Positions 62,417 through 64,000 of a DNA stretch of 64,000 nucleotides are shown one piece after another. Below the pieces are notes generated by a model. That model had not been told where the DNA came from and made no database searches. It saw only the letters and a list, made by a program, of their open reading frames with translations. The position numbers and the translations under genes were made by a program. The DNA comes from Thermomicrobium sp. (GTDB lineage: Bacteria; Chloroflexota; Chloroflexia; Thermomicrobiales; Thermomicrobiaceae): the NCBI GenBank assembly GCA_033582455.1, contig JAVQRO010000007.1:12628-76627 (forward strand), given 5' to 3'. How positions within the stretch are numbered: the first letter of the stretch is position 1; each line of letters opens with the position of its first letter.

Positions 62417-63615
62417 TCAGCGGGTGACCGTGAGCCCGAGGAGTTCGCCCATCTCGCGCAGGTGTGCGCGCGCTCGCTCCACTTCGCGCCCCTCGTCAGC
62501 TGCCCGAACGAGCCGCTGGGCCGCTTCGGCCAGCAGATCGATCGCTCGGGGGGTATCGAGATCGTTCGCGAGCGCGGCGACCAACGCGTCCCGCACAGGG
62601 CCGAGTTCGAGCGGCGTCGATCGGCCGCCGACGACGTTCACCGCCTCGCGTAGCTGCCGGACGAGCGGTTCGTAGCGGGATGGCCCGTCGTCTCGGTATT
62701 CGTAGGGAGTCCGGTAATGATGACTGAGGAGATAGAGCCGGATGGCGTCGCCGGTGTGACGACGGAGCGTGTCGCGCACGAGGACGAGGTTGCCCAGGAG
62801 TTGGACATCTTCGCCCCCTAGTACTCCACCATCGCCACGTGGACCCAGAAACGCGCGAAGGGACGGATGCCGGTATAGCTCTCCGATTGGGCGATTTCGC
62901 TTTCGTGGTGCGGGTAGATCAGATCCAAGCCACCCCCGTGGACGTCGATCTGCGGACCGAGGTACTTCATGGCCATCGCACTGCACTCGATGTGCCATCC
63001 TGGCCGCCCCGGTCCCCACGGACTCTCCCAGGTCGGCTCACCCGGTCGAGCCGCCTGCCACAGAACGAAGTCGAGCGGGTCTTCCTTCCGCGGATCGTAC
63101 GGATCGGCGCCCCGCTCGGCCGAGAGACGGATCATTTCCTCGCGCGGACAGCGACAGAGGTGCCCGTAGTCGGGATCGGCCGCGACGCGGAAATAGACGT
63201 TCCCGTCGCGCACGTAGGCAGCGCCCCGCTCCAGCAGTCGCTGGATGATCTCGATCATGAGCGGGATCTCTTCCGTCGCCCGCGGGAAGACGGAAGGAAA
63301 CAGCACATTGAGCGCATTCAGGTCTTCCTGGAACTGGCGGATATAGCGATCCCCCAGACGATCCCACGGTTCACCCACTTGGCGGGCCTTGCGCAGGATG
63401 TCGTCGTCGATGTCGGTGATGTTCTGCACGTACTTGACACGCCATCCGTGGTACTGGCAGACCCGGTTGAAGACATCGAAGACGAGGTAAGTCATCGCAT
63501 GACCCATGTGGGTCGTGTCGTAGGGGGTGACGCCGCAGACGTAGAGCCGAACGGTTCGCCCGTCGGCTGGGGCAAAGGTCTCGACTCGTCCGGACAGTGC
63601 ATTGAACAGGTGCAC
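62417..63615 (-). pseudogene. MshC-like / truncated-CysRS-like cysteine ligase, disrupted by TAG (62820-62818) and a 1-nt frameshift in the KMSKS loop
   Basis: YVCGVTPYDTTHMGH, QNITDIDD, WESPWGPGRPGWHIECSAM, HHESEIAQ, then Y*GAKMSN; LGNLVLV...RLYLLSHHYR...NDLDTP continues in another frame. Span is 1199 nt (3n-1). About 399 aa, with no anticodon-binding domain. Confidence 0.8.
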
Positions 63616-63714
63616 GGTCGCAGTCGCTCCCTCCAGCACTCGCGCTGCTCGCTTGCGGTATCGTACCATCGGTCTAGGCGTTGGACTCGTCGTCGATCGA
63701 AGGAAGGAGTGACG

Positions 63715-64000
63715 ATGGCTGGACAAGTCGGTGAACGGGCTCCGGACTTCCGTCTGCCGAGTACGCTCGGCCAACCACTCGCGCTGAGCGAGATTCTCAG
63801 CGAGCGGATCGCGGTACTGGCCTTCTTCCACTTCGCCTTCACTGGTGGTTGAGGGAACGAGCTGTCCCAGTTGTGGGGCAGAATCGACGAGATCCGCAGT
63901 CTCGGCGCGGAAGTCTACGCGATCAGTTGCGACAGTCACTTCGCCCAGGGCGCCTGGGCACGGGAACTCGGTGTCGACTTCCCCTTCCTCAGCGACTGGA
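63715..64000 (+). CDS. Selenocysteine-containing peroxiredoxin (AhpC/TSA, AhpE/BCP-like); 3' truncated by window edge
   Basis: ATG at 63715 after AAGGAAGGAG. Reads VGERAPDFRLPSTLGQ...FFHFAFTGG-TGA(63850-63852)-GNELSQL...EVYAISCDSHFAQGAWARELGVDFPFLSDW, with uninterrupted Prx homology across the UGA at the peroxidatic Cys position. Confidence 0.88.
63862..63881 (+). promoter_or_regulatory. Bacterial SECIS-like hairpin
   Basis: CUGUCCCA / GUUG / UGGGGCAG: 8-bp stem (one G-U) with a G-initiated apical loop 17 nt after the UGA. Confidence 0.7.

Follow-up and report, generated by a model that had tools for sequence, protein, structure and literature searches.

Peroxiredoxins (Prx) carrying selenocysteine (Sec) in a TxxU motif were known in 2006 from 12 genes, for which five Cys-to-Sec events were inferred (PMC1794560), and by 2016 from 91 genes in 78 bacteria (PMC5029168). 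A 2026 review treats the Prx TxxU family as experimentally supported and its PxxxTxxU motif as highly conserved, and names as the first Sec-Prx, by way of its citation of Sohling et al. 2001, PrxU of Eubacterium acidaminophilum (PMC13188914). For Thermomicrobium roseum, SelA, SelB and SelD are listed together with selenoproteins, the latter as a count of five with identities not given (PMC5029168 supplement).

Here we describe a locus of Thermomicrobium sp. that had been read, in a preliminary description, as a hidden selenoprotein gene; its reference to known Sec-Prx families was correct (PMC1794560, PMC5029168, PMC13188914). With a probability of about 0.92, the gene at this locus is intact and encodes a Sec-containing peroxiredoxin of 158 residues, whose fold resembles that of BCP/PrxQ or AhpE. 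From the sequence we infer selenium insertion at its in-frame UGA and peroxidase activity of its product.

Organization and annotation of the gene

The window, which is the whole stretch of 64,000 nucleotides that was analysed (C7:12628-76627), belongs to a 2.14 Mb draft genome in 64 contigs that is 93% complete. Its last 286 bases are the 5′ part of the Sec-peroxiredoxin gene on the + strand (Table 1). The 158-codon frame starting at ATG 63715 ends with a TGA at C7:76817-76819, which in window positions would be 64190-64192, and 192 nt of the gene lie beyond the window edge. Under translation table 11 the ORF ends at the TGA at 63850-63852, and the same frame is open from there onward to the window edge. 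The peptide around this internal TGA reads F-H-F-A-F-T43-G-G-U46-G-N-E-L. The preliminary description had let the ORF stop at 63852 with Prx homology continuing in frame, and all these elements were found where it had placed them. When ORFs were listed with TGA read as U, only huge spurious frames were obtained, the DNA being GC-rich, and scanning for promoters and terminators returned nothing.

Table 1. Positions of the features discussed in the text. Numbers without a prefix are window positions; a prefix names another contig or locus.
Feature	Position	Strand	Remarks
CysS paralogue, MshC type, ~400 aa	62417-63615	-	divergent; start codons 99 nt apart
Shine-Dalgarno-like AGGAG	63704..63708	+	read from sequence; 6 nt upstream of ATG 63715
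Sec-peroxiredoxin CDS	63715..64000 in window	+	codons 1-95 of 158; ORF, Pfam, AlphaFold2, Foldseek
Thr43 codon of T-x-x-U active-site motif	63841..63843	+	T, S, occasionally G among 71 homologues
In-frame UGA, codon 46, peroxidatic position	63850..63852	+	orthologue conservation; alignment with Cp of PDB 2cx3 and 2ywn
SECIS-like stem-loop	63858..63886	+	dominant fold of local RNA
selD	C1:69661-70596 (locus L003)	-	in-frame TGA in C-A-G-U-A-G-K
MshA-like glycosyltransferase and selA, divergent neighbours	C32:5907-7127 and C32:7613-8965	- and +	
Three downstream genes	L002:2174-3613, L002:3729-4538 and L002:4511-4975	-, + and -	

The public protein entries for this gene and its orthologues are C-terminal fragments of 105-111 aa that start after the TGA, which bears out the earlier expectation that the gene would be mis-annotated as truncated. 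The call made for the window itself (MWGRIDEI...) starts with TTG 63871, and the database entries include ones named 'redoxin domain-containing protein [Thermomicrobium sp.]'. None of the NCBIfam models reached its cut-off against the Sec-peroxiredoxin, which explains why the gene was not rescued by annotation pipelines.

Conservation of the UGA and of the reading frame

A search of 61 related genomes gave 33 orthologues, and all 33 contain exactly one in-frame TGA. In each of the 32 orthologues that were aligned, which cover 10 genera and 2 families and go down to 38% identity, this TGA stands in the same column. Many more TGA-bearing and Cys-bearing homologues were present in a phylum sample of 401 Chloroflexota genomes, from which 40 were extracted; the corresponding active-site codon is TGA in 25 of these and Cys in 15. 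Alignment with Cys-containing homologues, proposed earlier as a check, thus put Cys at the UGA column in 15 sequences, and the 57 TGA-bearing homologues extracted (32 + 25) all have their TGA in one aligned column. These 57 sequences come from independently assembled genomes and reach down to about 35% protein identity. Among 71 homologues five columns are invariant, namely G6, L24, U/C46, D94 and R119.

In a maximum-likelihood tree, 54 of the 57 Sec forms, from ~15 families, fell on one side of a split with 92/90 support. The three remaining TGA-bearing homologues (L082, L086 and L087) were placed among the Cys forms. Their placement suggests that extra, independent Cys-to-Sec conversions may have occurred in other Chloroflexota families, and three Sec forms among Cys forms are as expected if such conversion was a repeated event.

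The codons in front of the TGA were compared as well. Over the 44 codons before it (codons 2-45), 23 synonymous and 3 non-synonymous differences separate the gene from its closest relative, and the genus pairs summed give 897 synonymous versus 329 non-synonymous codon differences. By these counts, purifying selection acts in that frame on the 44 codons upstream of the TGA. The TGA codon itself is invariant, and the codons next to it differ synonymously.

These observations bear on the reading given by automatic annotation, in which UGA 63850 is a genuine stop and the product is a C-terminal protein of 106 residues from TTG 63871, with the upstream 45 codons untranslated or forming a separate micro-peptide. 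The ORF from TTG 63871 is indeed open. However, translation from there would leave out Thr43, the peroxidatic residue and the fold's first strands, so that no peroxiredoxin would be possible, and the AGGAG precedes ATG 63715 and not TTG 63871, in front of which no AGGAG-like motif was seen. Since the upstream codons evolve as coding sequence, a start after the TGA is incompatible with them, and a genuine stop would also have to be squared with an invariant TGA between synonymously variable codons. We consider this reading highly improbable.

The same conservation decides about the gene being a pseudogene, or the TGA being an assembly or sequencing error of TGC or TGT. Such an event could be suspected in a 64-contig, 93%-complete draft, the more so as the neighbouring CysS/MshC-like gene has private lesions (see below). 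But the identical TGA recurs in the 57 independently assembled genomes, which makes a base-calling error implausible, and the frame is intact with purifying selection on both sides of the TGA. Because the TGA is conserved, this explanation is effectively refuted. An intact gene read through its UGA is the reading that we follow below.

Fold and active site of the predicted peroxiredoxin

With U read as C, residues 5-132 of the protein match the Pfam family AhpC-TSA (PF00578) with 101.4 bits against a cut-off of 26. Sequence matches in the PDB are BCP/PrxQ of A. pernix (E 7e-22), Bcp1 and Bcp4 of Sulfolobus and AhpE of M. tuberculosis. The alignments place U46 on the peroxidatic Cys of A. pernix BCP/PrxQ (2cx3) and of Sulfolobus Bcp (2ywn), with T43-G-G-U46 lying on the S/T-x-x-C of both proteins. 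R119 aligns with the catalytic Arg of 'KRAVFIV' in 2cx3. The claim that the UGA sits at the peroxidatic Cys therefore stands, as U46 coincides with the catalytic Cys of solved BCPs in a column that is invariant in the 71 homologues.

An AlphaFold2 model calculated with the 71 homologues had a mean pLDDT of 95.9 and a pTM of 0.92, and in this model a helix of residues 44-55 begins next to U46. Foldseek gave a TM score of 0.91 to S. solfataricus Bcp4 (3hjp) and of 0.86-0.89 to AhpE, and its top matches were all peroxiredoxins. Cys71 is confined to the genus itself, and among the 71 homologues none of the columns holds a second invariant Cys. The lack of a conserved resolving Cys points to a one-Sec (1-Cys-type) peroxiredoxin.

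At position -7 from the Sec codon, where the PxxxTxxC/U motif has Pro, the window protein has His39 (63829-63831). We regard this as a deviation within the family and not as an exclusion from it, because the fold, the Thr, the position of the peroxidatic residue and the Arg are all present. All 15 Cys homologues keep the active-site Pro. Of the 57 Sec forms, 53 have H, Y, F, V, L, A or R instead; the Pro-less Sec forms include the pair L082/L087, which is nested among Cys forms and seems to be of independent origin. An association between loss of Pro and gain of Sec is a lead and not a result, as it would correspond to two or three independent events only.

A SECIS-like hairpin follows the UGA

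The core of the hairpin is an 8-bp stem (63862-63869 paired with 63874-63881) closed by the apical loop GUUG (63870-63873). Three outer base pairs (63858-63860 with 63884-63886) are separated from the core by a bulged G at 63861. Counted from the UGA, the stem begins after 9 nt and the loop after 17 nt. For comparison, the consensus of bacterial SECIS elements (bSECIS) quoted in PMC13188914 was applied by script. It consists of a loop of 3-9 nt, an upper stem of 4-16 bp, a G at loop position 1 or 2, a UGA-to-loop distance of 16-37 nt and a minimum free energy <= -7.5 kcal/mol (PMC13188914). With a 4-nt loop beginning with GU, 8 bp, 17 nt and -12.4 kcal/mol, the hairpin of the window lies within all of these limits. 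The preliminary description had given an 8-bp GUUG hairpin 9 nt after the UGA with its loop at +17 and had called its geometry consistent with bacterial SECIS elements; by all four constraints of the model, we agree.

A bSECIS-passing hairpin was also obtained after 370 of 4000 random TGA triplets of the genome (~9%), and by itself the hairpin is therefore weak evidence. Conversely, 27 of the 57 Sec homologues passed a strict, bulge-free version of the model. Several of those that failed, L027-L030 for example, form this hairpin with a bulged U in it, and in others the loop is 8 nt long and does not begin with G. Such failures among Sec homologues indicate that the consensus is no sharp discriminator here.

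A sub-clade of the same family (L035-L043) has 8-nt loops, e.g. AAAUUGCA, with no G at either of the first two positions. The post-UGA hairpin of these sequences is outside the consensus bSECIS model; their TGA is nevertheless kept.

Within the orthologues, compensatory changes were seen at four stem pairs, for instance nine sequences with U-A in place of C-G and four with G-C in place of U-A. Stem cells were paired in 78% of cases among orthologues versus 29-46% in slid controls, figures that come from coding sequence of related sequences, for which shuffle statistics overstate independence. In distant members the apical loop is again (A)GUU(N), with a spacing of 16-17, on quite different stems (UGACCG/CGGUCA, CUUUCCG/CGGAAAG and UGUCUCG/CGAGACG). 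Over nt +6 to +40, where both groups have the same G+C, the Sec forms had a mean fold energy of -11.0 kcal/mol and the Cys homologues one of -6.3 kcal/mol (p = 2.5e-5, with independence overstated as the sequences are related). According to these predicted folds, Cys homologues have the SECIS-like hairpin in a weak form or not at all. Scanning the gene region against Rfam at E <= 1 gave no family, and Rfam is without a bacterial SECIS model.

Selenocysteine machinery of the genome

The preliminary description had implied Sec machinery elsewhere in the genome, and all of it was located: a tRNA-Sec was found, and selA (538.5 bits), selB (353 bits) and selD (349.8 bits) all scored above their curated cut-offs. 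Of the 61 relatives, 56 have selA as well. The selD gene is itself a selenoprotein gene, and a hairpin with a GUG loop lies ~33 nt downstream of its TGA.

These genes are relevant to the question whether the UGA might be recoded by something other than Sec, for instance through near-cognate Trp, Cys or Arg insertion, with the hairpin in the role of a generic enhancer of read-through. The looseness of the hairpin criteria leaves some room for this, as does the fact that Sec insertion is read from sequence. Set against it are the complete dedicated Sec machinery in this genome, the wide presence of selA in the relatives, the GU loop and spacing that fit a SelB-type SECIS consensus, and the site itself, which is a redox-active Cys position, the hallmark of Cys/Sec pairs, where Trp or Arg at position 46 would kill catalysis. 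We therefore think that recoding as another amino acid is quite unlikely, and that Sec is the residue encoded by codon 46.

Neighbouring genes

Upstream of the Sec-peroxiredoxin gene lies a divergently oriented paralogue of CysS of the MshC type; a canonical cysS is found elsewhere in the genome. The head-to-head arrangement recurs at each of the 19 orthologous loci whose upstream sequence reaches far enough. The paralogue is intact in those 19 loci and is broken in this genome alone, by three lesions within ~30 nt at the KMSKS loop: a CAG to TAG change at 62820-62818, a change of KMSKS to KMSNS and, near 62800, a 1-nt deletion that causes a frameshift. The broken copy may be a true pseudogene, or the assembly may be wrong at this spot.

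An intact orthologue of the paralogue scored 395 bits on the MshC model (TIGR03447, cut-off 485) and equally on cysS. Given this score below the cut-off and the gaps in the mycothiol pathway, we rejected the neighbour as a true MshC. In profile searches of the genome MshD was absent, MshB was weakly matched, and the MshA-like glycosyltransferase reached 360.6 bits versus a cut-off of 462.5. A mycothiol pathway in this genome is thus not supported by the gene content.

The MshA-like gene stands beside selA, and the MshC-like gene stands beside the Sec-peroxiredoxin gene. Genes of thiol biosynthesis may be linked to selenium genes in this way, or the proximity may be a coincidence.

Downstream of the Sec-peroxiredoxin gene, as seen in locus L002, follow a convergent NDH-2-like pyridine-nucleotide-disulphide oxidoreductase, a luciferase-like monooxygenase and a DinB_2 superfamily protein. 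The DinB_2 superfamily includes thiol-dependent transferases.

Proposed mechanism and implications

In the mechanism that we propose, Sec-tRNA would be made from selC by SelA with selenophosphate provided by SelD, and the UGA at codon 46 would be decoded by Sec-tRNA(Sec), delivered by SelB bound to the stem-loop within the coding sequence. The selenolate of U46 would lie at the N-terminal end of helix 44-55, with Thr43 and the invariant Arg119 flanking it. By the chemistry of the family, it would attack hydroperoxides and be converted to a selenenic acid. Because there is no second conserved Cys, the enzyme would depend on an external thiol for its recycling; candidates are proteins similar to thioredoxin or glutaredoxin and low-molecular-weight thiols.

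A more far-reaching proposal is that the Chloroflexota Sec clade represents a mechanistically distinct one-Sec peroxidase with a relaxed need for the active-site Pro and a thiol-based recycling partner. The more acidic selenol in place of Cys may remove the need for the otherwise universal Pro, and in Thermomicrobiales an undescribed low-molecular-weight thiol resembling mycothiol might serve to recycle the selenenic acid. The maker of this thiol would be the 399-residue divergent CysS paralogue, in an arrangement kept in at least 6 genera. We offer this as speculation that will probably turn out to be wrong.

The main value of this work is the correction of the annotation, as dozens of Chloroflexota genomes record the gene without its active site. 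Antioxidant capacity and selenium dependence are thus under-counted in these mostly aerobic thermophiles. In addition, a large Sec-only clade of BCP/AhpE-like peroxiredoxins is documented which departs from the textbook PxxxTxxC/U motif, and its natural Cys/Sec pairs offer a route to finding out what selenium changes in peroxiredoxin catalysis.

Comparison with known peroxiredoxins

Structures of BCP/PrxQ (2cx3/4gqf, 3hjp and 2ywn) are the best matches of the window protein (E 7e-22, 35-36% identity, TM 0.85-0.91). They share with it the length and the positions of the peroxidatic residue and of the Arg. However, they use Cys and keep Pro where the window protein has U46 and His39, and several BCP/PrxQ proteins have a resolving Cys five residues after the peroxidatic one, a position occupied by Ser51 in the window protein.

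AhpE of M. tuberculosis (1xxu/4x1u) shares the size, the 1-Cys-type architecture and an FTG-x-C-x-x-EL-type motif, at 31-32% identity and a TM of 0.86-0.89. Like the BCP structures and unlike the window protein, it uses Cys and keeps Pro; by sequence, the BCP members score higher. AhpE is recycled through mycoredoxin-1 and mycothiol, which is echoed by the MshC-like neighbour of the gene described here.

PrxU is of the AhpC/Prx1 type. As a candidate PrxU the window protein was rejected, with 43.5 bits on NF040737 against a cut-off of 270. In contrast to the 233 positions of the PrxU model, it has 158 residues, and it is BCP/AhpE-like without a conserved resolving Cys.

The Prx-like thiol:disulfide oxidoreductase selenoproteins with UxxC or UxxU motifs have the same Pfam domain (PF00578) and are routinely truncated by gene callers too (PMC13188914). 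Membership in this group was rejected, since the motif U46-G-N-E contains no Cys and a conserved second Cys is lacking. In the UxxC proteins Sec comes first in a CxxC-type redox pair, whereas the window protein has, with Thr43 and Arg119, a true peroxidatic site.

Finally, with the Sec-Prx of the TxxU type the window protein shares the AhpC/TSA domain, Sec at the peroxidatic position in T/S-x-x-U, the existence of Cys homologues, a bSECIS within the coding region just after the UGA, and a repeated Cys-to-Sec origin (PMC1794560). It differs from the PxxxTxxU motif of the Sec-Prx review by having His, not Pro, at position -7. The window protein is a member of this established Sec-Prx family, in a short, BCP/AhpE-like one-Sec form that reveals no new mechanism.
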